A stretch of DNA of 64,000 nt. Source: Syntrophales bacterium (lineage in GTDB: Bacteria > Desulfobacterota > Syntrophia > Syntrophales > UBA6109). Below the pieces are notes generated by a model. That model saw only the letters and a program-made list of their open reading frames with translations, had not been told where the DNA came from and did no database searches. This document shows, one piece after another, positions 38,283 through 64,000 of the stretch (its first letter is position 1; the number at the start of each line of letters is the position of its first letter). The translations under genes were made by a program, and so were the position numbers. The stretch is taken from assembly GCA_035366835.1 (NCBI GenBank), contig DAOSIS010000008.1, positions 38,283 to 102,282 of the forward strand, read 5' to 3'.

Positions 38283-38314
38283 CGTCTCGGATCACCTCCC
38301 TTCCCTCAGTTTTA

Positions 38315-44185: not shown

Positions 44186-44214
44186 GTATCGGAATAACGG
44201 GAATTGAACTTTAG
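44186..44214 (-). promoter_or_regulatory. Sigma28 promoter of fliC
   Basis: The minus strand reads TAAAGTTC-N12-TCCGATAC, giving a leader of about 160 nt before the fliC ATG. Confidence 0.65.
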
Positions 44215-44330
44215 CAGCGCCGGTCGAGGCGGTCCCCGGGTTCCCTTCATCCCCCGCTGTTCGACGTACAACCGGTACGCCTCGCAGATCAGGTTTCAGG
44301 GGTCTTGCATACAGGCCATCCTGAGCAGCC
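44205..44330 (+). repeat. MITE-like repeat, copy 4 (degenerate, subfamily B)
   Basis: Shares TTCCCTTCATCC, CGACGTAC, CCGGTACGCCTC, TTTCAGGGGTCTTGCAT and AGCCTGCA blocks with copy 2. The left end is eroded and overlaps the fliC -35 region. Confidence 0.6.
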
Positions 44331-45963: not shown

Positions 45964-46640
45964 GCGAGCATTTCCTCGATCAGCAGATCGACGGAACGCG
46001 CCCTTGCGCGCGCCCCGGTCCCGCCGGCGTCATCTCCGCCCGCGGAGCGGATTTCGTAGAGCCGCCGCTGGAGGACGCCGGTGACGGCGCCGTACAGGGC
46101 AGGTTCCACGGCCGGCGCCGACGGGGTGATGTGCAGAGAAAACTCGCCGGCAAGCCCGGACAGGAGGGGATTGCACAGATCCCGCTGATCCCGTCCCGCG
46201 ACCAGTCGGCAGGGCCGGTCTCTCAGGAGTCGAACGAAGGCAGGTATCGCAGCAGCGGCGCGAAGCAGTTGCGGGTCGGACTCCACCAGCCAGAACGCCG
46301 TGATGCCGGGATGGCGTCCGGCGAGCGCGCAGGCGCAATAGCCCAGTCCCGCGCCGATCACGACTGCCGTATTCCGGACCCTCCGCTGCCAGCCGGTCCA
46401 TTCTTCCGCTTCCGCGACCGGGTCGATTCGGCTGTGCAGGAGGCGTTCGCCGCCGTCGCGTTCGACCCTCGCGGCCGTGAGGTCCCCGGAGGCGGCTCGA
46501 AAGAGACGCACCACCGGGAGGCCGGCCGGTTCGGGAAGGCCCTGCCGTCGCAAGTCGCCCGGTACTGTTGCGGCGGATCCTTCACGCGGCACTTTGCAGC
46601 TCCTGCAGGTCTTTGATGACAGAGGCCCGTCCCTTGGCAA
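45960..46640 (-). CDS. Maf N-terminal-domain-like / Rossmann-like protein of unknown function
   Basis: At most 226 aa. LLHSRIDPVAEAEEW..TAVVIGAGLGYCACAL parallels the N-terminal part of the adjacent Maf (QMLYDPEDPWGA..IAVFLGLGLGYHLHLF). The start is uncertain because the ATG 46640 ORF overlaps the maf 3' end by 59 nt. Confidence 0.45.
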   Translation of the reverse strand: MPRDGPLSSKTCRSCKVPREGSAATVPGDLRRQGLPEPAGLPVVRLFRAASGDLTAARVERDGGERLLHSRIDPVAEAEEWTGWQRRVRNTAVVIGAGLGYCACALAGRHPGITAFWLVESDPQLLRAAAAIPAFVRLLRDRPCRLVAGRDQRDLCNPLLSGLAGEFSLHITPSAPAVEPALYGAVTGVLQRRLYEIRSAGGDDAGGTGARARARSVDLLIEEMLA

Positions 46641-48504: not shown

Positions 48505-48524
48505 GAAGAGACTCCTTTCTCGTT

Positions 48525-50951
48525 TCAGCACGGCTGGATTGCCGGTGCCGGGGACGGAGGCGCGACCGTCGGGTCCTGGGGATGGACGATCATTTCAGCC
48601 ACTTTCTGAAGGAGGCTGCATTCCCGGCGTTTTCCCGTCTCGAGAAAATGACGGCTGATTTCGATCAGACGCAGCGCCAGCCCGGAAAAATCGGACAGGG
48701 ACGGCGTCCCGGGAACGCCTGCCGCGGCCCCGACGTCCTCGACGGCGCGGGCTACGCCTTCCCAATGGCCGGCTTTGGCCAGCGCGTAAATCCCGCCGAT
48801 CTTGTAGCGCAGATTCCAGGGATCGAGATCCCGGGCGTCGGCGATGCGGCAAACGCCGTTTTCCAGGTCGCCCGTCTCCAGAAGGGAGAGACCGTCCAGG
48901 AACCGCGCGCGTGCGGACTGCTGACGGTCCCGGCCCAACTCCTCCGCCTCGAGAAGAGGTTCCAGGAGGGAAACGACATCCCCGTGGCGGCATTGGGCCG
49001 TCCGATAGTCGGCGGCGGCCACCTGCAGCTCCACGGAGGAGGGGAATCGGTCCAGCATCCGCTGCAGGAAAAAATCCAGGCCGGCGACTTCATAAAGGGC
49101 GTAAAGACTGACGATTCTTGCGGCGAATTTCACGTCCTCGAGATTGCAGCGCTCGAGCCACGGCAGGGCAGAGGCAAGATCGCCGGCAGCAAGGAAATGC
49201 ACGAATCCCTTCCAGGCGATATCCAGGACGTCGGTGAAGGAAAACGCGGCGCGCACGGCGGCGTCTTTCCGCCGCTCCCGGCGCGGGCGGTCCTGCCGCG
49301 CATGCGTGACCTTGAAGACGTCGTTCCACTTGACCTCGATGCCGAGGTCCGCCAGCGACCGTTCCGCGGTTTCGAATGCGGGGGATTCGAAGAAGACGTT
49401 CCTTTGCGCAGGAAAGATGCGGACCGGACAATCCGCCTGCGTCTGCTTCGGGAGGTGAAGCATGACGAGCATCTCCTCTTCCGGCTCTTCCGCCTCGATC
49501 CTGGTGCGGAATGCCAGATGTCGCTCGCGAGGCAGGATTTGCTTGAACAGGGCGAACTTGAGGCGCTCCCGGGAATCGATGAACTCGTCTGCATCCAGGC
49601 AGAGGATGTAATCTCCCGTTGCCTCGCGGAGGCCGGCATTGCGGGCCCCTGCAAAGTCGTCTTGCCAGGGAGAGCCGATCACCCGGCACCCGGACGCGGC
49701 GGCGATGTCCCGCGTACCGTCTTTGGACCCCGTATCGACGAGGATCACTTCGTCGGCGATCCCCGCGACCGATTGCAGGGTTCGGGGAAGCGTATTTTCC
49801 TCGTCGCGGGCGATGATGCAGACGGAAAGCCTTGCCGCTCGCCAGCCGGGACTCGTGACGACGGCCAGAAGCCGGTGATCGAAGGGGTTGTACTGCAGGG
49901 ATTGGGAACGTTCCAGGACCTCGACGGCCTCTTCTCTCCGGCCTTGCAGCAGGTAGGCCTTGCCCAGAAACGACAGGACTTCGGCGCGGGCGTCCCGATG
50001 CTCCGAGGAGAGGTATCGGAGATAGCACCGGACCGCCTCGTCCATTTCCAGCAGATGGGCATAGAGAAATCCTGCGATGCGATACGGTACCGGAGAGTCG
50101 AAGAATCCCCAGCTCTTTTCCCATCGCTGGAAGAATTCGACGGCTTCGCGGAATCGCCCGAATTTCGCCAGGTAGTGGAGCATGGTGAGGTACATTCGCT
50201 CGCTCCCGAAACCCTTTTCCAGTCCCCGGTAATACCGCGGCACGTCCTCCATGGTCAGGACGCTGAAGATGAGGAATCTGTCGCTGAACTCCTCCAGCTT
50301 GTCTCCGTCCGTCGTGTCGCAGGACAACTCGCCCCTGAGAAACTTCATTTCCGTTTCCTTGCGGTCCTTCGTCTCGTCGCCCTTTCGGTCGGGGGTGGAG
50401 ACGGAGGAAACATCGATTTCCCGAAGGACGTTGCTTTCGAAGGGAAAGCAATCGTCCCCGGAGCGCGTCATCATCAGCTTGAGCAGACGGCGGAAGAGCG
50501 ACCTGCGGACGAGGCGGATTTCTATCACCGGCAGGGAGACGCCGGGACTGTCCGTTTCCAGTTCCTCACGTTGCCTGATCCACTGGAATTCCCTCATCCC
50601 TTCCTTCGGCACCTCTTCCCGAATCACGAGGCTGAAGCCCCGGGCGCGTTGATCGGCGAGACAGGAATCGGCGGAGAAGTTCGGGGCCACTGACACGGTT
50701 TCCTCCGGGCGGAGGAAAAGCACCCAGGGGGTCCGGCAGTCCTCTTCCGCCTTTGCGAGAAATTCGGGGGTAGGCCGCGCTTCGGCCATGACCGGTATCC
50801 CCCGTGATCCGGCAACGGCCGTGCTGCCGTCGCTCGAATCCATGTCCAGGTACCGGATGTCCCGTGCAAGCTTCCGGCAGCTTTCAATGCAGGCCGGAAG
50901 GCTGTCGCCGCGATCTTTCCCGACAATCCAGATGCTCAACGCGTCCGTCAT
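48525..50951 (-). CDS. TPR-repeat protein with tandem GT2-like domains
   Basis: 808 aa from ATG 50951 (ATGA-coupled). Canonical GT2 domain LSVCIIARDEENTLPRTLQSV..VILVDTGSKDGT..ARNAGL..YILCLDADEF. An N-terminal degenerate GT2-like domain, with TPR-like helical repeats between and after. Confidence 0.75.
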   Translation of the reverse strand: MTDALSIWIVGKDRGDSLPACIESCRKLARDIRYLDMDSSDGSTAVAGSRGIPVMAEARPTPEFLAKAEEDCRTPWVLFLRPEETVSVAPNFSADSCLADQRARGFSLVIREEVPKEGMREFQWIRQREELETDSPGVSLPVIEIRLVRRSLFRRLLKLMMTRSGDDCFPFESNVLREIDVSSVSTPDRKGDETKDRKETEMKFLRGELSCDTTDGDKLEEFSDRFLIFSVLTMEDVPRYYRGLEKGFGSERMYLTMLHYLAKFGRFREAVEFFQRWEKSWGFFDSPVPYRIAGFLYAHLLEMDEAVRCYLRYLSSEHRDARAEVLSFLGKAYLLQGRREEAVEVLERSQSLQYNPFDHRLLAVVTSPGWRAARLSVCIIARDEENTLPRTLQSVAGIADEVILVDTGSKDGTRDIAAASGCRVIGSPWQDDFAGARNAGLREATGDYILCLDADEFIDSRERLKFALFKQILPRERHLAFRTRIEAEEPEEEMLVMLHLPKQTQADCPVRIFPAQRNVFFESPAFETAERSLADLGIEVKWNDVFKVTHARQDRPRRERRKDAAVRAAFSFTDVLDIAWKGFVHFLAAGDLASALPWLERCNLEDVKFAARIVSLYALYEVAGLDFFLQRMLDRFPSSVELQVAAADYRTAQCRHGDVVSLLEPLLEAEELGRDRQQSARARFLDGLSLLETGDLENGVCRIADARDLDPWNLRYKIGGIYALAKAGHWEGVARAVEDVGAAAGVPGTPSLSDFSGLALRLIEISRHFLETGKRRECSLLQKVAEMIVHPQDPTVAPPSPAPAIQPC

Positions 50952-51595
50952 ATGCTTGCCCCTGAAGGAATTCCGTTCTGCTGATGGTGCATGTCTTTCC
51001 AGTCGCCGCGCCACAACCCCAGGAGAATTTCATCCTGGAAGCCCCCTCCGGTCATCCATTGGTTCTTCAGGCATCCCTCGCGGCTGAATCCGACCTTGAG
51101 AAACGCCTTTTCCGAACCGCGATTTCCGGAATAGCATCCGGCGCGGAGCTTGTTGAGGTTTTGAACGTCGAAGGCGAAGCGGGCGACCGTTGCGATCGCC
51201 TCCGTCGCATAACCCCTGCCCCAGCATTCCTTTTCGCCGATCAGAAGGCTGATGTCCGCAAAACGGTGGATCCGGTTGACGGGGCCCAATTTGATGTTTC
51301 CGATGTGGCGGCCGCCCTCCTTGAGGCAAATGGCGAGGAAGATCTCGTCGGGCCTGACGTTCTTTTCCTCGACGAAACGCCGGATGTCCTCGATGGAATG
51401 AGGGATGTAGCGGATTTCGAGAAACTGCGTGACCTCGGGGTCGTTGAGCCAGCGGAAATAGGCCTCGCCGACGTCGGCGAGGCGCACGTCCCGCAGATAG
51501 ATCCTCTCTCCCTCGAGGAAATGTCGCGGCAGGGGTTTCTCCTGTCCTGCCCGGCCCCGCGTGGTTCCTTCGTATTCGGGTACTGCGGCGTTCAC
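50948..51595 (-). CDS. pseH: GNAT N-acetyltransferase (PseH candidate)
   Basis: 215 aa from GTG 51595 (AAGGA RBS). RimL/GNAT pattern (IYLRDVRLADV..FRWLNDPEV.., IGEKECWGRGYATEAIATVARFAF). Confidence 0.7.
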   Translation of the reverse strand: MNAAVPEYEGTTRGRAGQEKPLPRHFLEGERIYLRDVRLADVGEAYFRWLNDPEVTQFLEIRYIPHSIEDIRRFVEEKNVRPDEIFLAICLKEGGRHIGNIKLGPVNRIHRFADISLLIGEKECWGRGYATEAIATVARFAFDVQNLNKLRAGCYSGNRGSEKAFLKVGFSREGCLKNQWMTGGGFQDEILLGLWRGDWKDMHHQQNGIPSGASI

Positions 51596-52398: not shown

Positions 52399-53025
52399 TC
52401 AGGGCCTCCATTGCAGGAAATTCTCCAGGACCCTGAGGCCGTGGTCCTGACTCTTTTCGGGGTGAAACTGCGTCGCGAAGACATGGTCTTTTCGCACGGC
52501 GGCCGCGAAGGAAACGCCGTATTCGCACGCGGCTTCGACATCCCGGCCGTCCCTGCAGCGCAGGTGATAGGAATGGACGAAGTAAAAATCGGCACAGGCC
52601 GGCAGACCGCGGAAAAGCACGCTTTGCGTCCGCGGAGAGACGTCGTTCCAGCCGACGTGCGGCAGCCGGACGTCCGCCGATTCCTGCGGGAGACGGACGA
52701 CGTCGCCGTCGAACCAGCCGAGGCCGTCGTGGACGCCGCCCTCGAAACCTCGCCGGGCCATGAGCTGCATGCCCAGGCAGATGCCGAGGATCGGGACGAG
52801 GCGGCCTTTCACCGCCTTTCCGAGGGCATCGGCGAGACCGGTTTCGCGCAGGCGGCGGATCCCCTCCGCAAAGGCGCCGACGCCGGGCAGGACGAGGCGG
52901 TCCGCATCCGCCAGTTCCTCCGGATCGGCAAGGATGGCCGTATCGGCACCGAGAGACTCCAGGGCGTGCCGGACGGAGAGGAGGTTTCCCATGCCGTAGT
53001 CGACGATACCCACCATGATCTTCAT
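52399..53025 (-). CDS. HisH-like glutamine amidotransferase subunit (WbuY/Cj1315c-type)
   Basis: 208 aa from ATG 53025. MKIMVGIVDYGMGNLLSV, nucleophile GICLGMQ, and HSY..QFHPEKS. Confidence 0.85.
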   Translation of the reverse strand: MKIMVGIVDYGMGNLLSVRHALESLGADTAILADPEELADADRLVLPGVGAFAEGIRRLRETGLADALGKAVKGRLVPILGICLGMQLMARRGFEGGVHDGLGWFDGDVVRLPQESADVRLPHVGWNDVSPRTQSVLFRGLPACADFYFVHSYHLRCRDGRDVEAACEYGVSFAAAVRKDHVFATQFHPEKSQDHGLRVLENFLQWRP

Positions 53026-54245
53026 CCCGCTGCGGCTGCCGCGCGTCCGCAGTCGCGCCGCAGAAAACGTTCGAGCTGCACCGTGGCCTCGTCGCGGGGC
53101 ATGCCGCCGCACCGCGGCCAGCGGTCGAAATCGGCAACCCGCTTCCCTTCTTTCACCAGGCGCTCGTCGTGCCGGTAGGGGGAAACCATGTGGCTTTTTG
53201 CGATGCCGAGGAACTCCGCCTCCGTGAGGCCGACGAATTTCAGGAAGAGGTCCAGGCTCGGCGGCCTCCGGCCCTCATATTCCGCGATCGTTTCCAGGGC
53301 CTCCTCCCGGGAGAGGCGGCCGTTCCGGATGTCGATGGAAGCGAGGTGCGTGGGACGGCTGTAGCCCCGCTTGATATACTTGATATAATCGCGCACGCCC
53401 TGCAGGCAGCATTCGATCTTCTCATAGTCGTAACCGGGCGGGACGTTCTCCACTTCGTCGCCCCTCCATCCCAGTTCATCCCGGATGATCGCCGACTGCT
53501 TCTTGACGTCCCAGGGGATGAAGGATCCCAGGCACACGGAGCGGTAGTCGAGCTTCCGCAGCTCCTTGAGCGGAGGATAGCGGAAGGGGTCGAGGTCGCG
53601 GCTGTCCACCATTCCCTCGAGACGGACGAACATGTCGTCGGCGCCGATCCCCAGATTGATGTAGCGGTTGAAGCGCTTCTCGTCGACCTCTTCGGGCTGG
53701 TCGTAACTGTAATAGGCGGTGTATTCCGAGGAGGGCTCTCCCCAGATCACCAGCGGCACGCGGCAGTTGACCGCCACCCGCATGGGGTAGGCGAAGATCC
53801 CCGTGTGGCAGTGCCAGCAGAAGTCGCCCTTCTCGAGGAAGCTCTGGAGCATCAGTTTCTGGACGACGCGCCAGTTGGGCGTGAAGTGGTGCACGTCCAC
53901 CCCCAGGGCCCTGGCGGTCCGCAGGGTGTTTTCGATGACGTTCGGTCTGAGGAACCCGTGATCGAAGCGGACCACGAGCGGCTTCAGGCCGTACTCCTTC
54001 ACGAGGTAGTGCAGCGTCCACGTGCTGTCCTTGCCGCCGCTGAAGGGGACGATGCAATCGTAGTCGGCCTTGCCGCGGTACGACGCGATCAGCTGATCGA
54101 GCTCCCGCTTCTTCACGCCCCAGTCGATCGCCTTCTGCTTGAATTCCTGCTGGCGGCAGATGTTGCAGACCCCCGCTTCGTCGAAAATGATCGTTTCGTG
54201 GGTTTCCGGCAGGACGCAGCGGCTGCAGCGCTTGAGATCCTTCAT
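53022..54245 (-). CDS. pseA: N-acetyl sugar amidotransferase (PseA/WbuX/WbpG family)
   Basis: 407 aa. N-terminal Zn-ribbon CSRCVLPE..CNIC and PP-loop VPFSGGKDSTWTLHYL. Followed by a hisH/hisF-like pair, as in acetamidino-sugar loci. Confidence 0.8.
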   Translation of the reverse strand: MKDLKRCSRCVLPETHETIIFDEAGVCNICRQQEFKQKAIDWGVKKRELDQLIASYRGKADYDCIVPFSGGKDSTWTLHYLVKEYGLKPLVVRFDHGFLRPNVIENTLRTARALGVDVHHFTPNWRVVQKLMLQSFLEKGDFCWHCHTGIFAYPMRVAVNCRVPLVIWGEPSSEYTAYYSYDQPEEVDEKRFNRYINLGIGADDMFVRLEGMVDSRDLDPFRYPPLKELRKLDYRSVCLGSFIPWDVKKQSAIIRDELGWRGDEVENVPPGYDYEKIECCLQGVRDYIKYIKRGYSRPTHLASIDIRNGRLSREEALETIAEYEGRRPPSLDLFLKFVGLTEAEFLGIAKSHMVSPYRHDERLVKEGKRVADFDRWPRCGGMPRDEATVQLERFLRRDCGRAAAAAG

Positions 54246-54249
54246 GAAG

Positions 54250-55341
54250 TCAGCCCTCCCTCTCCAGGCTTCCGCCTGCTTGATGACGCGTTTCTTCGAT
54301 CATGTGCCAGTCGAGCGGCGTTCCCCGGTCGATGTCGATCCGGGCCTTTCTGCCCAGGATGCCCGGCAGGTGCCTGGGCGGCAGTCCGTAGCCGGGGCGG
54401 ATGGAACGGAGATTCTCTCCGGTGAACGTCTCGCCGGTCTTCACGTCCGCCACGACGAACAGGGAGCGGCGGAAGACCAGGCTCTGGTCTTCGGCGATCC
54501 CGATTCCGTAACGGACCTCGCCGAGGGCCTTCTCCGCGGTCCGAACGGCGTCGACCATCGTCCGGAATTCCTGCGGCTCCAGGGAAAAGGCGCTGTCCGG
54601 ACCCGCCACGCTCCGGGAAAGCGTGAAATGCTTTTCCACGAGGCAGGCGCCGAGGGCGACGGCCGCGACGGGGACGGCGGTGCCCAGGGTGTGGTCGGAA
54701 ATCCCCACCGGCACGCCGAACGTCGCGGCCATGGCGGGGATGGTCAGCAGGTTCATCGATTCCGGCGGTGCGGGATAGGCGCTCGTGCACTTGAGGAGCA
54801 TCTGCTCCGTAGAGCCGGCGCGGCGCGCCGCACGAAGGGCGTCGGCGATCTCGGTTTCCGAGGCCATGCCCGTCGAGAGGATCAGCGGCTTGCCCGTCGC
54901 CGCCATCTTTTCGATCAGTCCGATGTCCACGATCTCGAAGGAGGCCACCTTGTAGGCCGGCACGTTCATGCGCTCCAGAAAATCGACCGCCGCATCGTCG
55001 AAGGGAGACGAGAACAGATCCATGCCCAGCCGTCCGGCGGTCTCCTTCAATTCCGGCTGCCATTCCCAGGGCGTGGCCGCTTCGGCGTACAGGTCGTAGA
55101 GCGTCCGGCCGTTCCAGAGGGTGTCCTTGATGCGGAAGGCCTCGCCGCCGCAATCGATGGTCAGCGAATCCGCCCGGTAGGTCTGGATCTTCACCGCGTC
55201 GGCGCCCCCTTCCTTGGCGGCCTCGACGATGCGCACCGCCTCGCGGAAGTCGTTGTGATGGTTCGCCGACATCTCGGCCACGATGTAGACGGGCCGGTTG
55301 CGGCCGACGAAGCGGTTACCGATCCGGATGCCCGTTTCCAT
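54250..55341 (-). CDS. pseI: Nonulosonic acid synthase (PseI/NeuB family)
   Basis: 363 aa. NRPVYIVAEMSANHHNDFREAVRIVEAAKEGGADAVKIQTY plus a C-terminal SAF-like region. Confidence 0.85.
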   Translation of the reverse strand: METGIRIGNRFVGRNRPVYIVAEMSANHHNDFREAVRIVEAAKEGGADAVKIQTYRADSLTIDCGGEAFRIKDTLWNGRTLYDLYAEAATPWEWQPELKETAGRLGMDLFSSPFDDAAVDFLERMNVPAYKVASFEIVDIGLIEKMAATGKPLILSTGMASETEIADALRAARRAGSTEQMLLKCTSAYPAPPESMNLLTIPAMAATFGVPVGISDHTLGTAVPVAAVALGACLVEKHFTLSRSVAGPDSAFSLEPQEFRTMVDAVRTAEKALGEVRYGIGIAEDQSLVFRRSLFVVADVKTGETFTGENLRSIRPGYGLPPRHLPGILGRKARIDIDRGTPLDWHMIEETRHQAGGSLEREG

Positions 55342-56110
55342 GGACAGGTCCTTTCAGGGATTCTTCGTCCAGCAGTTCCATACGCAGGTAGATCTTCCGT
55401 CCGTTCCGCCGGACGAAGGCGCCGCCGTAGGGCGGGAAGGTCTGCGCCCGGATCAGGTCGATGAGGCGTCCCGCGGGATAGGATGCCTCGGGATCGATCT
55501 CCGCCAGCCTTTCCAGGTCGCGAACCCTGTGGAAGGTCCCGCAGGAAGGCGACTGGGACCGGCGCGGCAGGGAGCCGGTCCGGATCGCAGGCCAGGAATC
55601 GGCGAAGAGTCCGATGCAGGCCTCCTCCAGTTTTCGGTACAGCGTCTCGGCCGTGTCGGTCGGATCGGCCGCCACCGCGCGCTGCGCGAGGATGTCCCCC
55701 GTGTCGATCCCCTCGTCGACCATGTGGATCGTTGCGCCGGCCGGGGTTCCGTCGAGGATGCTCCAGGCGTTCGGATGGGCGCCGCGGTTGTAGGGCAGCA
55801 GGGCGGGGTGGAGGTTGATCACGCCCCGTGGAAAGAGATCTAGGATCTCTCTCCGGAGGAGATAGCCGAAAAAGGCGCTGACCCCCATCTCGGGCCGCAG
55901 GTCCCGGAGACGCCCGAAAACGTCGGGATCGGAGAGCCGTGATCCGTCGAGAAGGGCATCGGGCGCCGCGGCGTCCGCGAGGATCTCCCCGCCGAACTTG
56001 CGCCGCTCCGGCGGGTGGAGAACGAACCCGGCGATCTCTTCGCCGGCTTCCTGCAGGTGCCTCAGGACCTGCCAGCCGACCCGGTTGTTGCCGAAGAAGA
56101 CGATCCTCAC
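55316..56110 (-). CDS. Formyltransferase-domain protein
   Basis: 264 aa. Formyl_trans_N motifs INLHPALLPYNRGAHP and VDEGIDTGDIL. No tRNA-binding C-domain. Confidence 0.75.
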   Translation of the reverse strand: MRIVFFGNNRVGWQVLRHLQEAGEEIAGFVLHPPERRKFGGEILADAAAPDALLDGSRLSDPDVFGRLRDLRPEMGVSAFFGYLLRREILDLFPRGVINLHPALLPYNRGAHPNAWSILDGTPAGATIHMVDEGIDTGDILAQRAVAADPTDTAETLYRKLEEACIGLFADSWPAIRTGSLPRRSQSPSCGTFHRVRDLERLAEIDPEASYPAGRLIDLIRAQTFPPYGGAFVRRNGRKIYLRMELLDEESLKGPVHGNGHPDR

Positions 56111-57168
56111 GCGACCTTTCCTTTCCGTCGTTTCATCAGGGTCCTGACGATCCGTTCCGCACCGCGCCCGTCGATCAGCTTCCGTCCCCGGCGCCGCATC
56201 TCCCGCCGCGCCGCGGCGTCGTTCAGCAGGCCCTCCGCCGCTGCCGCGATCCGGGATGCGAGCGTGCGGTCGGGCCGGCCCAGGTTCAGGGCGATCCCGG
56301 CCTCGTGCAGGGACGCGGCGATCGGGGCCTGGTTGTCCGCCGCGACCACCAGAAGCGCCGGCAGGCCCAGGCAGGCCATTTCCCAGCAGGTGCTTCCCGC
56401 GGCGGCGACGGCGACATCCGCCCAGGCCATGTGCTCCGCCATGTTCTCCGCCGCCGGGATCACTTCGCCGCGCAGAGAGGCCGCGCGCATTTCTTCACGG
56501 CAGCGCGCCTCGTCCGGGCTGGCGGGGCCGACGACGGTGCGGACTTCCACGCCAGCCGTTGCGAGGCCCCGCAGGGCGCGGATCGTCGTCGGGCCGAGTC
56601 CGAGCGGATCGGCGCCGCCCATGGTCACGAGGATCCGGCCGGCCTCGGCGCGAACCCTTTTCCGGTCGGCCTTCCGTTCCAGAAATTCTCGGCGGATCAT
56701 CGCGAAGCGGCTCCCCAGGAGGAGGCGGGTCCTTCTTCCTGTCGTCGGGTAGAGGTCCTCCCGGGCGTAGAGATTCGCATTGATCACGATCTCGGCCTCA
56801 TACCGCCCCGCGACGCCGTTGTCGTCGATCTGCGCCACCGGCAGCCCCCCGCTGCGGACCGCCGCGACATAGGCGGCGCCGAAGGCGTATCCGTCCACGG
56901 CCACCCAGGAAGCACCGATCTCCCTGCCGAGGGCGGCCGTCTTCCGGGCGTCCGTGTTTCCCCCTGTCGCTGCGTTCAGGACCGCCGCCTTCATCCCCCC
57001 GCTGGCCAGACGCCCTTCCATCGCCGACGACGCCGAGCCGAACGCGAAGAAGACGTCTCCGGCCAGTTCCCGCCAGGCCTGCGCCAGCGCGATGCAGCGC
57101 ATCACATGGCCCGTGCCGATCCGTTCGTTGCCGTCGGCGCGGATGAGGAGGGTTCCGCCCATCTTCAT
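56107..57168 (-). CDS. pseG: UDP-2,4-diacetamido-2,4,6-trideoxy-hexose hydrolase PseG
   Basis: 353 aa from ATG 57168 (ATGA-coupled). LLIRADGNERIGTGHVMRCIALAQAW and a C-terminal GT-B-like GSTCWEMACLGLPAL. Confidence 0.8.
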   Translation of the reverse strand: MKMGGTLLIRADGNERIGTGHVMRCIALAQAWRELAGDVFFAFGSASSAMEGRLASGGMKAAVLNAATGGNTDARKTAALGREIGASWVAVDGYAFGAAYVAAVRSGGLPVAQIDDNGVAGRYEAEIVINANLYAREDLYPTTGRRTRLLLGSRFAMIRREFLERKADRKRVRAEAGRILVTMGGADPLGLGPTTIRALRGLATAGVEVRTVVGPASPDEARCREEMRAASLRGEVIPAAENMAEHMAWADVAVAAAGSTCWEMACLGLPALLVVAADNQAPIAASLHEAGIALNLGRPDRTLASRIAAAAEGLLNDAAARREMRRRGRKLIDGRGAERIVRTLMKRRKGKVA

Positions 57169-59249
57169 GCCTTCCGGAAGACGGCCTGGACGGGCTCGCC
57201 TTCCAGCCGTGCGGCGACGTCGTCGCAGCGGATTGCGTCCGCGAGGATCTCCAGCGCGGCGCGGTATGCGCGCAGCGTCTCGTCGATGTCGGCGTCGGTA
57301 TGCAGGAGACAGAGGTTCTGGGCGCCTGCAAAGAGGATGCCGCGCTTGAGGCACTCCTGCTGGAAAAGGCTCTTGTACAGAAGCGATTCCGCCCCCGTCG
57401 CATCGCGGAAGCCGATGACGGTCCGCGGCGCGTAACCGCGGCAATCGGTGTACGCCCCGACCCCGAAGGCCTGCGCCAGCACGTTGTAGCCGTCCTGCAG
57501 CTTCCGTCCCTGTTCCCAAAGGTGACCGACGACGTTGCGGCGCTGCATCTCGAGAATCGTCGCCTTCGCGGCGGCCAGGGAAAGCGCCTCGCCGCCGAAG
57601 GTGAAGGAAAAGAACACCTCGTCGAAAAGGGACATGATCTCGCGTTTGCCGACGACCGCGGACAGCGGGTATCCGTTGGCGATGGCCTTGCCGAAGCAGG
57701 CGAGGTCGGGCGTCACGCCGAAGTGCTGCTGGGCGCCGCCCAGGGCCATGCGGAAGCCGGTGATCATCTCGTCGAAGACGAGCACGCTCCCTTCCCGGCT
57801 CGTCAGATCCCGCAGCCTTTCGAGAAAGTCGTCCTGCGGTGCGGCGATGCCGACGGGCTCCAGGATGACCGCCGCCACGCGGTCCGGGTGTTCGCGGAAG
57901 ATCCGCTCCGCCGAGGCGATATCGTTGTAGGAAAAGGGGGCCGTCAGGGCGCGGCAGCTCTCCGGAACGCCGCGGTTTCTTGTCGTCGATCCGATGTACC
58001 AGTCCTGCCAGCCGTGATAGCCGCAGCAGGCGATCACGTCCCTGCCCGTGAAGGCGCGCGCGGCGCGGACGGCGCCGGCGGTCGCATCGGAGCCGTTCTT
58101 CCCGAAGCGGACCATCTCCGCGCAGGGAATGACCTCCGTCAGCATCTCGGCAACTTCCACCTCCAAGGGATGGGGGAGGGAGAAGGACGTTCCGTCCGCC
58201 ATCTGCCGGGTCACGGCTTCCGTCACGGCGGGGTAGTCGTGTCCGAGAATCACGGGGCCCAGCGCCAGGGGGTAGTCGATGTACTCGTTCCCGTCGACGT
58301 CCCAGACGCGGCAGCCCTTTCCGCGGGCGAGAAATGCGGGTGCAACCCCCTGGACAAACTGCGTCGGCCCCTTGCTCATGGTCTGCGTGCACGAGGGGAT
58401 GACCCGCCGGGCGCGCGCGAGGAGGGCCAGGGATTTCGTGAGGCTTCGCGAACGCGGCGGCAGCGCCGTTTCGCGGGCCAGGGACTTGTAGAACCCCTCG
58501 TTGCGGACGCCGTCGGCGTTGATCTGCGCGATGCCGGGCTCGCGGTCCAGGAGGGCGAGGACTTCCTGCAAACCGAAGCGGTTGCCGTTGCCGCCGAGCC
58601 GCTCGTAGACGGCGCGCACGAACTGCAGGTCCGCCGGTTCGTCGACGGTCCAGCGGAGGTTGCGGGGCGACAGATCGGTTTCGTTTTCGACGCCGGCGAT
58701 GCGGAAACGCCGGGGGTTGCGAATGTAGCTCGTCACGTGTTCGCGGTCCGCGGGCAGGCGCGCCTCTTTCCAGGCCTGCGCCAGCGCTGCGAAGGAAAAG
58801 GACTCGACGTCCAGGCCGTCCGGATAGGTGTAGCGGAGGCGGTTCGTCACATAGTCGACGTCCCCGGCGAACCCGCGGAGGACGACCTTGTCCACGACGG
58901 CGGGATCGATCAGCGGGCAGTCGGCGGTGATCCGCACGACGACGTCGGCGCGGAATTCGGCGGCGGCGCGATAGAAGCGGTCCAGGACATCGTCTTCGCT
59001 GCCGCGGAAGACGTCGATGCGGCGGGCCCGGCAGAACGCTTCGACGGCGTCGTCCGCGGAACGGTCCGTCGTGGCGACGACGACCCTCTCCACGGTCCGC
59101 GCCTGCCTGACGCGCTCGACGACATGCTGCAGCATCGGCTTGTCCAGGATCGGCTCCAGGACCTTGTTCGGCAGACGGCTCGAACCCATCCGGGCCTGAA
59201 CCACGGCGACGACATGGGGCTTCTTGCGCAAAGGTTTGCTCCTCTCCAT
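57165..59249 (-). CDS. Fusion protein: SpsF-like cytidylyltransferase (N-terminal) :: class-III aminotransferase (GSA-aminomutase-like, C-terminal)
   Basis: 694 aa in one frame with no stop. N-domain VVAVVQARMGSSRLPNKV..FRGSEDDVLDRF..RITADCPLIDP. C-domain RVWDVDGNEYIDY..FDEMITGFR..FGKAIANGYPLSAV. The boundary is near 58466. Confidence 0.8.
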   Translation of the reverse strand: MERSKPLRKKPHVVAVVQARMGSSRLPNKVLEPILDKPMLQHVVERVRQARTVERVVVATTDRSADDAVEAFCRARRIDVFRGSEDDVLDRFYRAAAEFRADVVVRITADCPLIDPAVVDKVVLRGFAGDVDYVTNRLRYTYPDGLDVESFSFAALAQAWKEARLPADREHVTSYIRNPRRFRIAGVENETDLSPRNLRWTVDEPADLQFVRAVYERLGGNGNRFGLQEVLALLDREPGIAQINADGVRNEGFYKSLARETALPPRSRSLTKSLALLARARRVIPSCTQTMSKGPTQFVQGVAPAFLARGKGCRVWDVDGNEYIDYPLALGPVILGHDYPAVTEAVTRQMADGTSFSLPHPLEVEVAEMLTEVIPCAEMVRFGKNGSDATAGAVRAARAFTGRDVIACCGYHGWQDWYIGSTTRNRGVPESCRALTAPFSYNDIASAERIFREHPDRVAAVILEPVGIAAPQDDFLERLRDLTSREGSVLVFDEMITGFRMALGGAQQHFGVTPDLACFGKAIANGYPLSAVVGKREIMSLFDEVFFSFTFGGEALSLAAAKATILEMQRRNVVGHLWEQGRKLQDGYNVLAQAFGVGAYTDCRGYAPRTVIGFRDATGAESLLYKSLFQQECLKRGILFAGAQNLCLLHTDADIDETLRAYRAALEILADAIRCDDVAARLEGEPVQAVFRKA

Positions 59250-59251: not shown

Positions 59252-60289
59252 TCAACGACCTTCCATGTGCACGAATGCGTTGGATTTCGCCGAACGTTTT
59301 GCGGCGAAGGCGATCTCGAGGACGCGCGCGGCCTCGGCGACGTCGAGGCAGGTCCGCGTGCGGCCGGCCCGGGAAGCGAGGAAGTGACGCATTTCGTCGA
59401 CATACATGCGGTTGACGTCCCAGGCCCGGGGGGTGCGGAAAGTGCGCCAGCAGCCGTCGCCGGCTGCAAACCAGCGGACGGTCCCGGCCGTGAAGTCCCA
59501 GGCGATCGTGCCCTCCTCGCCGACGATCTTGCAGCGGCGGCTGTAGGCGCGTTGGACGTAGTCGAGGTGGACTTCCCCCACGGCCCCGCGGTTGAAGTAC
59601 AGCAGCATCGCCGCCGTGTCCTCCGTCCGCATCTCGAGGCTGCTGAAAATGCCTGCCATGCAGGCGACGGACTTGACCTCGCCGATCAGCCAGCGGATGT
59701 AATCGATCTCGTGAATGGCGTCGAGGATGACGCCCCCGCCGAGGTCGACGCGCGCGCTGTAGCCGGTCCGGTAGTCTTCGGTCGGGTGCCAGTCCGGCAG
59801 GTACTGGCCGAATTCGACGCTGGCCGACACCACCCGACCGATCTTCCTCTCCTCCAGGAGCTGTTTCACGCGCACGAGCCCGGGATGGAAGCGCAGATTG
59901 CATCCCACCATGCTGACGAGGTCGCTTTTCCGCACCAGCCGGGTCAGTTCCCCGATTCCGCCCGTCCGGTCGGAGAGGGGTTTTTCGATGAAGAGGTCGC
60001 AGCCGCGCCGGGCCGCCTCGAGGGCCAGTTCGACGTGCGAAGACGGCGGCGTCGCGATGAGGACGATATCCGGATTCCATTTCCAGGCCGCCGAGAAGCT
60101 GGTTCCGGCCTCGATCCCGAACCGGGCCGCGGTCTCCCGCGCCCGCTCCGTCGCTCCGTCGCAGGCGCGGATGTCCCCCGCGCGCAGGGCGATCAGGTTC
60201 GAGATGTGGCGCTTTCCGATCGAACCGCACCCGATCACGAGGATGCGCGGCCTCTGCGGGTCCTTGGCGCGTACGGATCGGTTCTTCAT
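59252..60289 (-). CDS. Gfo/Idh/MocA-family NAD(P)-dependent oxidoreductase
   Basis: 345 aa. N-terminal Rossmann motif RILVIGCGSIGKRH and a Gfo/Idh/MocA-like C-domain. ATGA-coupled to pseC. Confidence 0.75.
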   Translation of the reverse strand: MKNRSVRAKDPQRPRILVIGCGSIGKRHISNLIALRAGDIRACDGATERARETAARFGIEAGTSFSAAWKWNPDIVLIATPPSSHVELALEAARRGCDLFIEKPLSDRTGGIGELTRLVRKSDLVSMVGCNLRFHPGLVRVKQLLEERKIGRVVSASVEFGQYLPDWHPTEDYRTGYSARVDLGGGVILDAIHEIDYIRWLIGEVKSVACMAGIFSSLEMRTEDTAAMLLYFNRGAVGEVHLDYVQRAYSRRCKIVGEEGTIAWDFTAGTVRWFAAGDGCWRTFRTPRAWDVNRMYVDEMRHFLASRAGRTRTCLDVAEAARVLEIAFAAKRSAKSNAFVHMEGR

Positions 60290-61509
60290 GCCTGCTCCTT
60301 GCCCGCATCGCGGGACGCGGCCCGCCGAACGGCTTCGATCACCCGGCTCAGGTCCTCGTCCGTCATGGCCGGAAAGATGGGGAGGCTGATCAGCTCGTCG
60401 TGGGCGGATTCGGCAACGGGGTAATCGCCGCGCCGGTATCCGTAGCGTTTCGAATAGTAGGGGTGAAGGTGGACGGGCAGGTAGTGGACGTTGGCCCCGA
60501 TCCCCTGCTCCCGCAGGAGGCGGAAGAAATTTCCGCGGTCGCCGCCGGCGCCGTTCGCCCGGTAGCGCACCGGGTAGAGATGATAGGCGTGACGTACGTC
60601 AGGCGATGTCGCCGGAATCCGGAGCGTCTCCCATCCCGAGAAGGCCCGATCGTATGCCGCGGCGATCTCACGGCGCCGCGACAGGATGTCCGGAAGCCTG
60701 CGGAGCTGGCTTGTCCCCAGCGCGCACGCGATGTCGCTGAGGCGATAATTGTAGCCGAGGTCCATCATCCCGTATTGCCAGGTCCCGCTCTCCGACCTTT
60801 GCCGGTGATCGGTGTCGATGCCGTGATTGCGGAAACGGCGCATCTTGTCTGCGAGGACGGCGTGGTCCGTCGTAATCATTCCGCCCTCTCCGGTCGTAAT
60901 GTGCTTCACGGGATGGAAACTGAAGACGGTGAGGTCCGCGAGCGTTCCCGTCTTTCTTCCCCTGTACTCGGCGCCCAGGGAATGGCAGGCATCGGCGATG
61001 AGGACCAGCCCGTGCCGGTCGGCAAGGGCGCGGAGGGCGTCGTAATCGCAGGGCTGTCCCGCGTAATCGACGGCGACGAGGGCGCGGGTCCGATCGGAGA
61101 CGCATTCCTCCGCCGCCGCGGGGTCGAGCAGCAGCGTTGCCGGGTCGACGTCCGCGAAGATCGGATGACCGCCCTGGTAGAGCACGGCGTTGGCCGTGGC
61201 GACAAACGTCAGCGGCGGGACGATCACGGGATCGCCCGGTCCGATCCCGGCTGCGTACATGGCGGCGTGCAGGGCGGCCGTGCCGCTCGAGACGGCTACG
61301 GCGTATCGGGCCCCGATGGAGGCCGCAAAGGCGTTTTCGAACTCCTCGACGGAAGGTCCCGTTGTCAGCCAGTCCGATTCCAGGACCCGCACGACGGCGT
61401 CGATGTCGTTCTCGTCGACGGATTGCCGTCCATAGGGAATGACGGGGCTTCTGTCGCAGGGACCGTTCCACTTGGCCCTTCTGGGGATTCTCAAGGGGAT
61501 GGTGATCAT
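60286..61509 (-). CDS. pseC: DegT/DnrJ/EryC1-type aminotransferase PseC
   Basis: 407 aa from ATG 61509 (ATGA-coupled). IPYGRQSVDENDIDAVVRVLESDWLTTGPSV and PLP-Lys region SFHPVKHITTGEGGMI. Confidence 0.85.
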   Translation of the reverse strand: MITIPLRIPRRAKWNGPCDRSPVIPYGRQSVDENDIDAVVRVLESDWLTTGPSVEEFENAFAASIGARYAVAVSSGTAALHAAMYAAGIGPGDPVIVPPLTFVATANAVLYQGGHPIFADVDPATLLLDPAAAEECVSDRTRALVAVDYAGQPCDYDALRALADRHGLVLIADACHSLGAEYRGRKTGTLADLTVFSFHPVKHITTGEGGMITTDHAVLADKMRRFRNHGIDTDHRQRSESGTWQYGMMDLGYNYRLSDIACALGTSQLRRLPDILSRRREIAAAYDRAFSGWETLRIPATSPDVRHAYHLYPVRYRANGAGGDRGNFFRLLREQGIGANVHYLPVHLHPYYSKRYGYRRGDYPVAESAHDELISLPIFPAMTDEDLSRVIEAVRRAASRDAGKEQA

Positions 61510-62861
61510 CTCGCTCCGGCTCCTTCCGCCAGGGGAAGCTCCGCGAAGCCCTCCTCGGCATTGACCATGTTCAGTACGACCTTTTCGTTGAGCCTGTGCA
61601 GGGTGGAGAGGAACTGAGCCGTCGGATCCTTTTCCGCCGACGACCCGCAAATCATCCTGCGCAGTTCACCTACGGAAAGCCATTGATCGTTGCTGTTGCT
61701 CACGTAGGAGAAGTTTTCAGGGAGAGGATCGCCGCCCTTGTAGTTCTGGCGCTCCCACCAGGGATAGTTGGGAAGGATGACGTACATCCCTTCGTAGGAG
61801 ACGGCGTGGCGTCCCTCCTCTTCCGTAATCAGGACTTCGTGCAGCTTTTCGCCCGGACGGATGCCGGTGTTGATGACCTCGCAATCGGGGGCGACCGCCT
61901 CGGCCAGGTCCGTGATCTTCATGCTGGGGATACGCGGGACGAAGATCTCGCCTCCCTGCATCTGGCAGAAGGCGCGGACGACGAGATCGACGGCCTGGTC
62001 GAGCGTGATCCAGAAACGCGTCATCCGGACGTCGGTGATCGTGATCCTGCCGGTCTTCTTCTGTTCCTTGAACAGCGGGATGACGCTGCCGCGGCTGCCG
62101 ATGACGTTCCCGTAACGGACGCAGCTGAAACGGGTGCCGCGGGAGCCGGAGTAGGAATTGCCCTGGATGAAGAGCTTGTCGGCACAGAGTTTCGTTGCCC
62201 CGTAGAGGTTCACGGGGTTGACGGCCTTGTCGGTGCTGAGCGCCACGACCTTCTTGACCCCGACGTCGATGGCGGCATCGATGATGTTCTCGGCGCCGTG
62301 GATGTTCGTCTTGACCGCCTCGAAGGGGTTGTATTCGCAGGAGGGGACCTGTTTGAGGGCGGCGGCATGGACGACGAGGTCGCATCCTTCCATCGCCCGC
62401 CGCAGACGGTCCGCATCGCGGACGTCTCCGATGAAGTACCGGACCATCTCTTCCCCGAAGACCTGCCGCATTTCGTGCTGCTTCAGCTCGTCGCGGCTGT
62501 AGACGCGGAGAACCCGGGGGCGGTAGCGCTCCATCATGACCCTGCAAAAATGTTTTCCGAAGGAACCGGTGCCGCCGGTGATCAAGATCGACTGCTTTTC
62601 CCAATTGATCGTGTCCATGTCCGCATTTCCCTTCTTGAGGATTCGCCGCGCCTGGTCGATGGTGCGGTTGTTGATATGGAGCAGTTCCTTGATCTGCGAA
62701 AGGTTCGTCACGTCCCGCTCCGAATAGCGCCGCTGTCCGCCGGCCGTCCGCCGGGGCCTGACGAATTCGGGAAACTCGCCTTCCCAGAAGCGGATGGTGG
62801 AAGGAGGAACCCCCAAATTCTGGCTGACTTCCTGGATCTTCGACTCTGAACTGGTCTCCAT
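61506..62861 (-). CDS. pseB: Fusion protein: MerR-type HTH domain :: UDP-GlcNAc 4,6-dehydratase (inverting) PseB
   Basis: 451 aa. Residues 1-80: IQEVSQNLGVPPSTIRFWEGEFPEFVRPRRTAGGQRRYSERDVTNLSQIKELL (MerR HTH). From residue 82: ILITGGTGSFG, YGATKLCADKLF, and a PseB/FlaA1-like remainder. Internal ATG at 62618. Confidence 0.85.
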   Translation of the reverse strand: METSSESKIQEVSQNLGVPPSTIRFWEGEFPEFVRPRRTAGGQRRYSERDVTNLSQIKELLHINNRTIDQARRILKKGNADMDTINWEKQSILITGGTGSFGKHFCRVMMERYRPRVLRVYSRDELKQHEMRQVFGEEMVRYFIGDVRDADRLRRAMEGCDLVVHAAALKQVPSCEYNPFEAVKTNIHGAENIIDAAIDVGVKKVVALSTDKAVNPVNLYGATKLCADKLFIQGNSYSGSRGTRFSCVRYGNVIGSRGSVIPLFKEQKKTGRITITDVRMTRFWITLDQAVDLVVRAFCQMQGGEIFVPRIPSMKITDLAEAVAPDCEVINTGIRPGEKLHEVLITEEEGRHAVSYEGMYVILPNYPWWERQNYKGGDPLPENFSYVSNSNDQWLSVGELRRMICGSSAEKDPTAQFLSTLHRLNEKVVLNMVNAEEGFAELPLAEGAGAR

Positions 62862-62950
62862 GTCCTGCTCCCCGTGAGATGAATTTCCGATTCGGCCCTG
62901 CCTGCGAATGTCGGAGCCGCCTTGGCTGCTCCTTCGGTTTCCCTGTCGTA

Positions 62951-62968
62951 AAACTTGAATTCAACTTT
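62951..62968. promoter_or_regulatory. Imperfect 18-bp palindrome (candidate operator) in the glycosylation-operon leader
   Basis: AAACTTGAATTCAACTTT, 16 of 18 positions symmetric with a perfect 10-bp core TTGAATTCAA. It lies just downstream of the sigma54 -12 element. Confidence 0.35.
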
Positions 62969-62985
62969 CAGGTGAACTTCAGAAT

Positions 62986-63001
62986 TGCAAACGATATGCC
63001 A
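62986..63001 (-). promoter_or_regulatory. Sigma54 promoter of the 15-gene glycosylation operon
   Basis: The minus strand reads TGGCAT-ATCGT-TTGCA, a near-consensus -24/-12 element, about 125 nt upstream of ATG 62861. Confidence 0.65.
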
Positions 63002-63110
63002 GGAAGGTCGATGTCGATTTTTCTGCAATTTCGGCCGGTTGGGGAAAATGGCGTGCGGCCCGGGCGGGGGATGGGAAAATTTTTCCGGTCCGATCCGGTC
63101 CCTGCGACAA

Positions 63111-64000
63111 TCAGAATCCGCGGGTTGGACGGTGCGTCACGGGGCGAACTTCCCCGGCGGACCGGTCTCCGCGCAGCGACTGGATGGCCTCGAGGATCCG
63201 GACCGCCCGATGCTGGTAGGTGTGCTCGGCCAGGACACGTCTGCGCGCATTGGCGGCGATCGCCTCCCGTTCCGCCGTCGCGGACCGGTAGCGGGCGGCG
63301 GCCTCCATCATGTCGTCCCAGGTTCGTACGGCGACGACCTCGTCGGCGGGATGAAAGTGCAGGGGAAGAAGCGACCGCATATCGGAGATCTGGAAGCAGC
63401 CCATGCCGGCGAGCTCGAATGTGCGCGGGTTCACGAAGTCGCCGGTGCCGAGGTCCTTCGGGACCATGGAAGAGTGGAGGTTCAGATTGACGGCGGACCG
63501 GCGGTAGACCTCCTGCGCCTCCCGGTCCGTCACGCGCCGGCTTCCGACGATCGTGCCGGGATGGCCGTAGCGGTCCCATTCTTCTCCGTAGATCCGGATG
63601 CTGTCCTTGCCCAGGAGGGACAGGTAGTGGACGCGGTTGGGGTAGGGGGCTCCCACGAAGGACAGCGGAAACGGCGTCGGATCTCCGAGAGAGCGGGGCG
63701 GCAGGCGCCTGTCGTAGGCGGCCGGAAGATACCGAAAATTCCGGCACCCGGCGGCTTCGAGTTCCCGCCGGAAGGGCTCTGTCTGAATCGCGAAGAAGAG
63801 GTCGAAGTGCGGCGCCAGCGTCTTCCAGTAGGGGAAGAGGCGGTAATCTTCCGTGAACCAGTAAGCGAGGACGATGCCGGCCTGGCGGAGCTGCGAGAGG
63901 ATCTGCGGATCCTGGAGCGGTGACTGGGCGATGCCCAGGATGGCCTCGGGACGGAAGGCGAGGACGGTCTCCAGCAGGCGGGTCTTGAGGAGAAGATGAA
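63111..64000 (-). CDS. CgeB/DUF3880-type glycosyltransferase (5' end outside the window)
   Basis: The frame is open to the window edge (HLLLKTRLLETVLAFRPEAILG..YWFTEDYRLFPYWKTLAPHFDLFFAIQ..). C-terminal FVNPRTFELAGMGCFQISD..ARRRVLAEHTYQHR. The ORF-track start at 63656 is only an internal GTG. Confidence 0.65.
   Translation of the reverse strand, partial: HLLLKTRLLETVLAFRPEAILGIAQSPLQDPQILSQLRQAGIVLAYWFTEDYRLFPYWKTLAPHFDLFFAIQTEPFRRELEAAGCRNFRYLPAAYDRRLPPRSLGDPTPFPLSFVGAPYPNRVHYLSLLGKDSIRIYGEEWDRYGHPGTIVGSRRVTDREAQEVYRRSAVNLNLHSSMVPKDLGTGDFVNPRTFELAGMGCFQISDMRSLLPLHFHPADEVVAVRTWDDMMEAAARYRSATAEREAIAANARRRVLAEHTYQHRAVRILEAIQSLRGDRSAGEVRPVTHRPTRGF

Follow-up and report, generated by a model that had tools for sequence, protein, structure and literature searches.

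A MerR-type winged helix fused to the PseB dehydratase in a Syntrophales flagellin-glycan operon: a candidate autoregulatory enzyme

In this work, we describe a gene that joins a MerR-type winged helix-turn-helix (wHTH) DNA-binding domain, in a single reading frame, to PseB, the inverting UDP-N-acetylglucosamine (UDP-GlcNAc) 4,6-dehydratase. The gene lies in a stretch of 64,000 nucleotides (nt) from a Syntrophales bacterium (GenBank assembly GCA_035366835.1, contig DAOSIS010000008.1), which is called the window below and whose positions are used throughout, and it heads an operon for flagellin glycosylation. Three phased AAGTT-type repeats are found in its promoter region, and comparison of related loci associates such repeats with the fused form of the gene. 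From this association, we consider it on balance probable that the fusion protein is an autoregulator acting at the AAGTT repeats of its own promoter. The gene and its parts are as follows.

61506..62861 (-): MerR-wHTH::PseB fusion gene, complete, 451 amino acids (aa), with an ATG start and a TGA stop at 61506-61508 (open reading frame (ORF) list and sequence)
62868..62873 (-): Shine-Dalgarno-like GGGGAG, 6 nt 5' of the start codon at the head of the MerR domain
62634..62840 (-): MerR-type winged helix-turn-helix domain, residues 8-76
62601..62633 (-): domain junction K-G-N-A-D-x-G/D-K-I-D/N-W, residues 77-87, short and conserved
61653..62600 (-): PseB (UDP-GlcNAc 4,6-dehydratase, inverting) domain, residues 88-403 (TIGR03589)
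61509..61652 (-): C-terminal tail, residues 404-451, with a helix predicted at low confidence at 413-436

The two domains share one frame, and the sequence of 61506..62861 has no stop between them. The Pfam profile MerR_1 (PF13411) matched residues 8-76 of the fusion (E=8.3e-19, 67.9 bits, the cut-off being 21.6 bits) and the profile MerR (PF00376) residues 8-46, while Polysacc_synt_2 covered residues 92-362 (E=1.4e-103). The NCBIfam equivalog model for PseB, TIGR03589, scored 504.4 bits (cut-off 407.75 bits) over residues 88-403, the match running from position 3 to position 323 of the 324 in the model. An earlier note on this DNA had read the gene as a MerR-type domain continuing in frame into a complete PseB and had left the N-domain to be compared with MerR profiles; the scores of PF13411 and TIGR03589, each above its cut-off, bear out that reading, and PF13411 exceeds its gathering score. 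The 451-aa protein is identical to GenBank entry HOG16800.1, from a Syntrophales metagenome-assembled genome (MAG).

Homologues of the fusion were sought in a collection of 5.8 billion proteins, the best 120 were examined, and residue counts are given over 121 sequences. All 120 homologues carried both the MerR and the PseB Pfam domains (68-95% identity, 434-484 aa). In the AlphaFold2 (AF2) model, the N-domain is built of helix a1 (residues 9-16), the recognition helix a2 (20-29), a wing (36-46), helix a3 (48-63) and helix a4 (68-76), and this order, a1-a2-wing-a3-a4, fits a MerR-type wHTH. The model of the N-domain alone had a predicted local distance difference test score (pLDDT) of 93-96 over residues 11-70. 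The invariant residues of the domain are S21, T22, R24, W26 and E27 in the recognition helix and G41, R44, R45 and Y46 in the wing; the recognition helix motif P-x-S-T-I/V-R-Y/F-W and the wing motif GGQRRY were invariant across orders. Mean pairwise identity was 53% for the N-domain and 76% for the enzyme, the median ratio of nonsynonymous to synonymous substitution rates (dN/dS) was 0.22 and 0.14, respectively, and dN/dS in close pairs was 0.03-0.2. Judged from these rates, the N-domain is clearly under purifying selection.

By sequence, the closest solved relatives of the N-domain are CarH/LitR (E=2e-5), GlnR, MerR and CarA, and a weak NCBIfam similarity to BldC was also detected (E=3e-4). 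By fold, Foldseek placed closest the DNA complexes of TnrA, CarH (38-39% identity), GlnR, RacA and MtaN. The TM-scores of these matches to MerR-family DNA complexes, normalised to target length, were at least 0.8, and the top structural matches were DNA-bound wHTH domains led by the subgroup that has no coiled coil. The fusion likewise has no long a5 coiled-coil dimerisation helix, a4 being followed by about 7-10 linker residues before the first PseB strand (91-95). The MerR C-terminal effector domain is also absent, and its position is occupied by the complete short-chain dehydrogenase/reductase (SDR) domain of PseB. The classical MerR operator, a dyad within a sigma70 promoter with an over-long spacer of 19-20 bp, was not found. 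The earlier description of the N-domain as a 'typical MerR winged-HTH' therefore stands as to the MerR-type wHTH and falls as to 'typical', since the coiled coil, the effector domain and the sigma70 spacer of 19-20 bp are all missing. With no coiled coil or effector domain, and with a promoter of the sigma54/sigma28 kind, the DNA-distortion mechanism of classical MerR proteins is not to be assumed for the fusion.

In the enzyme part, the motif TGGTGSFG and residues S209, D211, Y220 and K224 were invariant in 121/121 sequences, and K212 was present in 120/121. The closest solved structure to this part is FlaA1/PseB of H. pylori (2gn4, E=2e-111). The invariant catalytic and NADP motifs, taken with the full-model equivalog match, uphold the claim that PseB is complete, and the domain looks catalytically intact from its sequence. 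Residues G78 and W87 of the junction are invariant; the match to the N-terminus of unfused PseB relatives begins at about I85. In the helix of the C-terminal tail, H422 and L424 are invariant among close homologues. The tail is carried by part of the fused family and also by unfused relatives (loci L072, L073 and L077), and thus belongs to the PseB clade and not to the MerR module. The same three unfused loci rule out an origin of the tail as the C-helix of a once standalone MerR protein, displaced when PseB was inserted into it.

The fusion is preceded by a 250-nt intergenic region with promoter elements, in agreement with the claim that it is the first gene after the operon promoter. These elements, and the other sigma28-type promoters of the window, are listed here.

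62986..63001 (-): sigma54-type element TGGCATATCGTTTGCA (-24/-12), an exact TGGCAY-N5-TTGCW
62951..62980 (-): three phased AAGTT-type repeats, candidate operator (GAAGTT 62975-62980, AAAGTT 62963-62968, CAAGTTT 62951-62957)
62931..62958 (-): sigma28 (FliA)-type promoter, with -35 TCAAGTTT (= repeat 3), a 12-nt spacer and -10 ACCGAAGG (62931-62938)
33259-33285 (+), 38314-38340 (-), 42432-42458 (-) and 44185-44215 (-): canonical sigma28-type promoters of flgM, flaG, fliD and flagellin, in that order

The exact pattern TGGCAY-N5-TTGCW occurs three times in the window (0.06 expected). Repeat 1 begins five nt past the sigma54 element, repeat 2 follows twelve nt on and repeat 3 a further eleven nt on. 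Repeats 2 and 3 together form an 18-bp quasi-palindrome, AAAGTTGAATTCAAGTTT (62951-62968), and this dyad is unique in the window, where 0.1 would be expected. Counted from the predicted sigma54 start site, the repeat block runs from about -5 to about +24, and it takes in the sigma28 -35. The sigma28-type promoter of the fusion has the geometry of the four canonical ones, TAAAGTTT-N11/12-CCGATA; those of flgM, flaG, fliD and flagellin have a single copy of the -35 and no extra phased repeats. From these matches, the pse operon appears to have tandem sigma54 and sigma28 promoters. A scan of 62700-63300 for sigma70 promoters and intrinsic terminators found nothing, and the leader matched no Rfam family even at a permissive E-value; a known riboswitch or leader RNA is unlikely. 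The two other exact sigma54 elements of the window lie at 28581-28596 (+), 36 nt 5' of flgF (28632), and at 6252-6267 (+). The four canonical sigma28 promoters also provide a within-genome late flagellar consensus for this Syntrophales MAG.

The promoter layout is shared across Syntrophales, Desulfobacterales and Desulfobulbales: a sigma54 element is followed after 3-7 nt by taAAGTtaAtc..AAAGTT.aATTaAAsTTTt and, after about 12 nt, by CCGA(T/A)A, and the leader outside this layout is not conserved. Of 64 fused loci, 50 reached a dyad score of at least 10/12, where shuffled sequences would give about 1.5; when sites further upstream or in truncated loci are included, the dyad count reaches about 55 of 66. 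For comparison, ten close PseB relatives with no MerR domain were used, a small set retrieved by similarity, whose enzyme part is 70-79% identical. By a strict count, at least two phased repeats were present in 33/63 fused loci, in 0/10 unfused loci and in 0.5% of shuffles (Fisher p=0.0015). The sigma54 element, at one mismatch or fewer, was found in 46/63 fused and 8/10 unfused loci; the unfused relatives thus keep this element, in exact form in eight of the ten, and lack the repeats and CCGATA. In the PseB-domain tree, the fused clade is interrupted at about four places by unfused genes, with at least three transitions between fused and unfused states in 100/100 bootstrap replicates and at least four in 99/100; the ten unfused loci stand for no fewer than 3-4 separate losses. 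Across the 800 kb of loci that were fetched, the perfect dyad was confined to the 5' side of the fused gene, where 24 loci have it. A co-variation test against operator variants found the recognition helix almost invariant, with a weak, phylogenetically confounded trend between E27/Q27 and AAAGTTT/AAACTTT. The autoregulation proposed in the earlier note thus gains comparative support, at the level of sequence, from conserved phased AAGTT repeats and a dyad in the promoters of fused genes only.

According to the mechanism that we favour, the fusion would be a bifunctional 'trigger enzyme'. As the PseB catalyst, it would carry out the first step on the way to the CMP-pseudaminic acid with which flagellin is glycosylated, and through its wHTH domains it would recognise the phased AAGTT repeats in the promoter of its own gene. 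Binding would repress the pse operon and so bring about negative autoregulation within the flagellar hierarchy; repression is favoured by the position of the candidate site, across the sigma54 start region and the sigma28 -35. FlaA1 forms a hexamer, and the solved PseB relatives 6bwc and 4j2o contain six chains per entry. Since a dimerisation helix is missing from the wHTH, affinity for DNA would probably come from the PseB oligomer, which would supply the multivalency. By analogy with BirA, NadR, PutA and RbkR, it may be speculated, as the earlier note did for enzyme occupancy, that substrate, product or NADP occupancy modulates this binding. We regard as quite unlikely the more elaborate version in which the PseB oligomer is a CarH-like sensing scaffold, so that UDP-GlcNAc, the 4-keto product, a downstream nucleotide sugar or NADP redox would rearrange the wHTHs and the enzyme would thereby set whether the pse operon is read from its sigma54 (middle) or its sigma28 (late) promoter.

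Several points weigh against autoregulation at the repeats. The wHTH and the repeats are linked by correlation alone, and since the repeats adjoin the MerR-coding segment, one replacement or deletion could remove both with no functional link between them. Repeat 3 and CCGATA are explained by the sigma28 promoter alone, AAAGTT being the sigma28 -35 core, and the extra repeat copies could be auxiliary sigma28 elements or remnants of such elements. Relative to the sigma28 promoter, repeats 1 and 2 stand at about -45 and -57, positions that activators also use, and this placement may serve activation of that promoter. Three fused loci (L011, L012 and L017) have no AAGTT repeat module, for which promoter turnover or a different operon structure is a possible explanation, and the Desulfurivibrionaceae clade has a diverged version of the motif. 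No AAGTT-type sites were found 5' of the standalone wHTH relatives of the N-domain, a null result that is uninformative. Finally, the full-length AF2 model had a pLDDT of 67 with a poorly defined linker and tail, and its interdomain geometry is unreliable. In the PseB-domain tree, no locus stands nearer to the window than L011 and L012, two of the three without the repeats, and these two also have no good sigma54 element.

The likeliest alternative is as follows. The wHTH would bind DNA with its target elsewhere, at other flagellar or glycan genes or in non-specific nucleoid tethering, and the repeats would be only promoter architecture, made up of a sigma28 -35 with degenerate or auxiliary copies, or the site of another flagellar regulator, their co-occurrence with the domain being the outcome of common descent and physical adjacency. 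The identity of AAAGTT with the sigma28 -35 core, in a window that holds four other sigma28-type promoters, fits this explanation, as do the standard sigma28 geometry of repeat 3 and CCGA(T/A)A, the closeness of the repeats to the MerR-coding segment, which a single event could delete together with them, and the fused loci in which the motif is missing. The canonical sigma28 promoters of the same genome, however, have neither the two extra phased copies nor the conserved aATT spacer, and the full dyad was absent from the remainder of the 800 kb, which contains many flagellar genes. The extra repeats, moreover, are kept across orders where the surrounding leader is not, and no other candidate regulator gene is consistently adjacent. 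We hold this alternative to be unlikely.

It is also conceivable that the N-domain no longer binds DNA and has become a protein-protein or regulatory appendage, which would dock Maf, flagellin, chaperones or sigma factors, or would tune the assembly or activity of the hexamer. Such a role would suit a domain that has lost the MerR dimerisation helix and is held by a short, conserved linker, which suggests a fixed position on the enzyme. The invariant positions nevertheless fall in the recognition helix and the wing, every one of the closest structural relatives is bound to DNA, and the promoter of the fusion itself holds a conserved and matching DNA element, so that we give this explanation little credence. 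That the fusion is an artefact joining two genes, or that the products are made separately by a restart at the internal ATG at 62618, is improbable to the point of being negligible and, for the family, effectively refuted.

The identical 451-aa protein was called on 11 contigs from independent JGI, NCBI and ENA assemblies, and a genome scan with residues 1-113 of the fusion as query, one genome per species, recovered one continuous fused ORF in about 64 species-representative genomes. With the fused architecture also present in all 120 homologues, frameshift and misassembly are excluded for practical purposes, and the suspicion that raw reads might reveal a stop or frameshift separating two genes is not sustained. 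The earlier note had further suggested that the internal ATG could yield the enzyme alone. This codon does exist in the window, as Met82 (ATG 62616-62618) inside the domain junction, with an AAGGGA stretch 9 nt upstream; but methionine occupies position 82 in only 4/121 homologues, Ile and Val dominating there, and any methionine within residues 78-90 was found in 9/121. Given this poor conservation, an internal start that yields the enzyme alone is not characteristic of the family. A Shine-Dalgarno motif 5' of the N-domain ATG was present in nearly all fused loci, which, together with the unconserved Met82, indicates that the fusion is the product. The in-frame N-domain is, as described above, under purifying selection. 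The split form, a standalone MerR-like gene beside pseB, was sought as 'Rosetta stone' evidence and none was found, and no MerR gene was found near the unfused pseB loci.

The genomes with the fusion belong nearly all to Thermodesulfobacteriota (Syntrophales, Desulfobacterales, Desulfobulbales and Desulfurivibrionaceae), and Desulfatibacillum alkenivorans DSM 16219 (locus L056) is a cultured carrier, as is Desulfosudis oleivorans. Where database names are given to homologues of the fusion, they read only 'UDP-N-acetylglucosamine 4,6-dehydratase (inverting)'. Literature searches on MerR with PseB, on MerR with pseudaminic acid and on FlaA1 with hexamer and PseB returned no relevant paper and no account of the fusion. 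The statement of the earlier note that no characterised example was known therefore agrees with the literature, although the architecture is abundant in public databases and merely unrecognised in the names. In a search of a representative library with the N-domain, the fused family collapsed to about one cluster at 50% identity (P0122), and that search is hence no gauge of its breadth. No second kind of enzyme fusion could be clearly identified in the best 150 N-domain matches, among which the longer multi-stretch matches were not inspected.

The nearest non-fused relatives of the N-domain in the library-wide search are small standalone proteins of 100-150 aa, of the 'LRFWEGEFPEL' type. The MerR-only matches at L070, L071, L074 and L081 are small standalone proteins, and at the three loci inspected the standalone MerR-only genes stood in unrelated contexts, for instance pheT/recN and glpK; the gene at L070 lies between pheT and recN. 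The standalone 'LRFWEGEFPEL' MerR-like subfamily comprises 9196 clusters at E<=1e-3 (examples P0123, P0128 and P0130), some of its members having 200-220 aa and two tandem wHTH copies. The function of these standalone proteins is apparently uncharacterised.

The gene that follows the fusion is the second of the pathway.

60286..61509 (-): pseC-like aminotransferase (DegT_DnrJ_EryC1; called gene and Pfam)

The stop codon of the fusion overlaps the pseC-like start (ATGA) at 61506-61509 (-), an overlap which indicates that the fusion and pseC, the first two enzymes of the pathway, are translationally coupled. After the pseC-like gene, the pse operon continues with genes for a GFO/IDH oxidoreductase, a cytidylyltransferase-aminotransferase fusion, a pseG-like protein, a formyltransferase, a NeuB/PseI-like protein, a 407-aa protein, hisH/hisF-like proteins and an acetyltransferase. 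It runs on into a glycosyltransferase family 2-tetratricopeptide repeat (GT2-TPR) protein, a Maf flagellin glycosyltransferase, a glycosyltransferase of family 9 (GT9), flagellin, fliD, fliS and flaG, and the opposite strand carries flgF, flgG, flgA, flgH, flgI, flgJ, flgM, flgK and flgL, together with flgE and motA. The assignment to a flagellin-glycan pathway, also made in the earlier note, is well supported by the pse genes in this context, with Maf, flagellin, fliD, fliS and flaG downstream and flgM and flgFGHIKL in the window.

Some further genes of this neighbourhood were recorded. The second fusion in the operon, at 57165-59249 (-), encodes 694 aa in which a PseF-like cytidylyltransferase (CTP_transf_3/NTP_transf_3) is joined to a class-III aminotransferase (Aminotran_3), and the formyltransferase gene of the cluster is at 55316-56110. 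The 407-aa gene (53022-54245, -) has no Pfam match and stands between the NeuB/PseI-like gene and the hisH/hisF-like amidotransferase pair; its position beside that pair suggests an acetamidino-type modification of the nonulosonic acid. The Maf-type glycosyltransferase (MptE-like and Maf_flag10_N; 46582-48531, -) is preceded by the 829-aa TPR-GT2 protein (48525-51014, -) and followed by the GT9 heptosyltransferase-like gene (44404-45963), a set that hints at a flagellin glycan more complex than a single nonulosonic acid. FliD, encoded at 39341-42340 (-), has 999 aa and is much longer than usual; FliD_N and FliD_C of Pfam cover about 13-114 and 461-617, with large inserts outside these matches.

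Known pse genes are plain members of the flagellar regulon, and, to our knowledge, how bacteria match the supply of nonulosonic-acid sugar to flagellin production is poorly understood. If the fusion is an autoregulator as proposed, it would provide a direct, testable link between pathway state and flagellar gene expression, its operator being set between promoters of the sigma54 and sigma28 kinds. With it, the trigger-enzyme class of BirA, NadR, PutA and RbkR would reach sugar-nucleotide metabolism and the MerR-type fold, and there would be a third way, after CarH and the pairing of glutamine synthetase with GlnR/TnrA, in which a coiled-coil-less MerR wHTH borrows the oligomerisation of a metabolic module. 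Should the PseB oligomer in fact serve as a sensing scaffold, flagellin glycan supply would be coupled directly to the flagellar assembly checkpoint, and for glycan biosynthesis as for a flagellar regulon the fusion would be the first trigger enzyme to sense a metabolite. At present, annotation pipelines hide the DNA-binding domain behind PseB-only names. The size of the family, with at least 64 species, and the existence of cultured strains make it experimentally accessible, and with a candidate operator and cultured carriers at hand the idea is directly testable.

Among known systems, the enzyme part shares its catalytic motifs with PseB/FlaA1 of Helicobacter pylori and Campylobacter jejuni, which carries out the same first step of flagellin pseudaminic acid synthesis. 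We know of no characterised PseB that has a DNA-binding domain or a role in transcription. CarH/LitR (PDB 5C8D/5C8E, 3WHP) resembles the fusion in its MerR-type wHTH with no coiled coil, which is tethered to a cofactor-binding module that provides oligomerisation, as the PseB body would in the fusion, and the tandem direct repeats overlapping the -35 in CarH-like systems are paralleled here by three phased repeats of which the third is the sigma28 -35. In CarH, however, the C-terminal domain binds cobalamin and is not an enzyme, whereas the fusion has PseB and no B12-binding domain; the CarH repeat nnnnTnnACAn is unrelated to AAGTT, its promoters are of the sigma-A type and its signal is light.

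GlnR and TnrA (PDB 7TEA, 4R22, 4R4E) have, like the N-domain, a minimal MerR-like wHTH with no coiled coil, and their binding to DNA depends on the state of glutamine synthetase, a large oligomeric enzyme (PMC9249791, PMC4335299). Their sites are palindromes of about 17-21 bp, and the candidate dyad of the fusion has 18 bp. They differ in that enzyme and regulator are separate polypeptides acting in trans, in the control of nitrogen assimilation and in being proteins of Firmicutes. BldC of Streptomyces, another MerR-like wHTH with neither coiled coil nor effector domain, binds phased direct repeats cooperatively (PMC5859096); it is, however, a standalone protein of 68 residues with no enzyme, which forms a head-to-tail oligomer through its wHTH on AATT-type repeats in another register.

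BirA, NadR, PutA and RbkR are enzyme-repressor fusions (PMC5397151), in which one polypeptide holds an active enzyme and an N-terminal DNA-binding domain that represses its own pathway, and the sequence of the fusion points to the same build. The DNA-binding domain of RbkR has been lost repeatedly in some lineages (PMC5397151), a pattern that the unfused pseB genes within the fused clade resemble. The known trigger-enzyme fusions all belong to vitamin, cofactor or amino-acid metabolism (PMC5397151), and none of these four involves a MerR-type wHTH, an SDR sugar-nucleotide dehydratase, a glycan pathway or sigma54/sigma28 flagellar promoters. The fusion is therefore conceptually of a known class, that of enzyme-repressor fusions and of coiled-coil-less MerR wHTH regulators, and what is new in it is the combination of folds, the pathway and the promoter setting.

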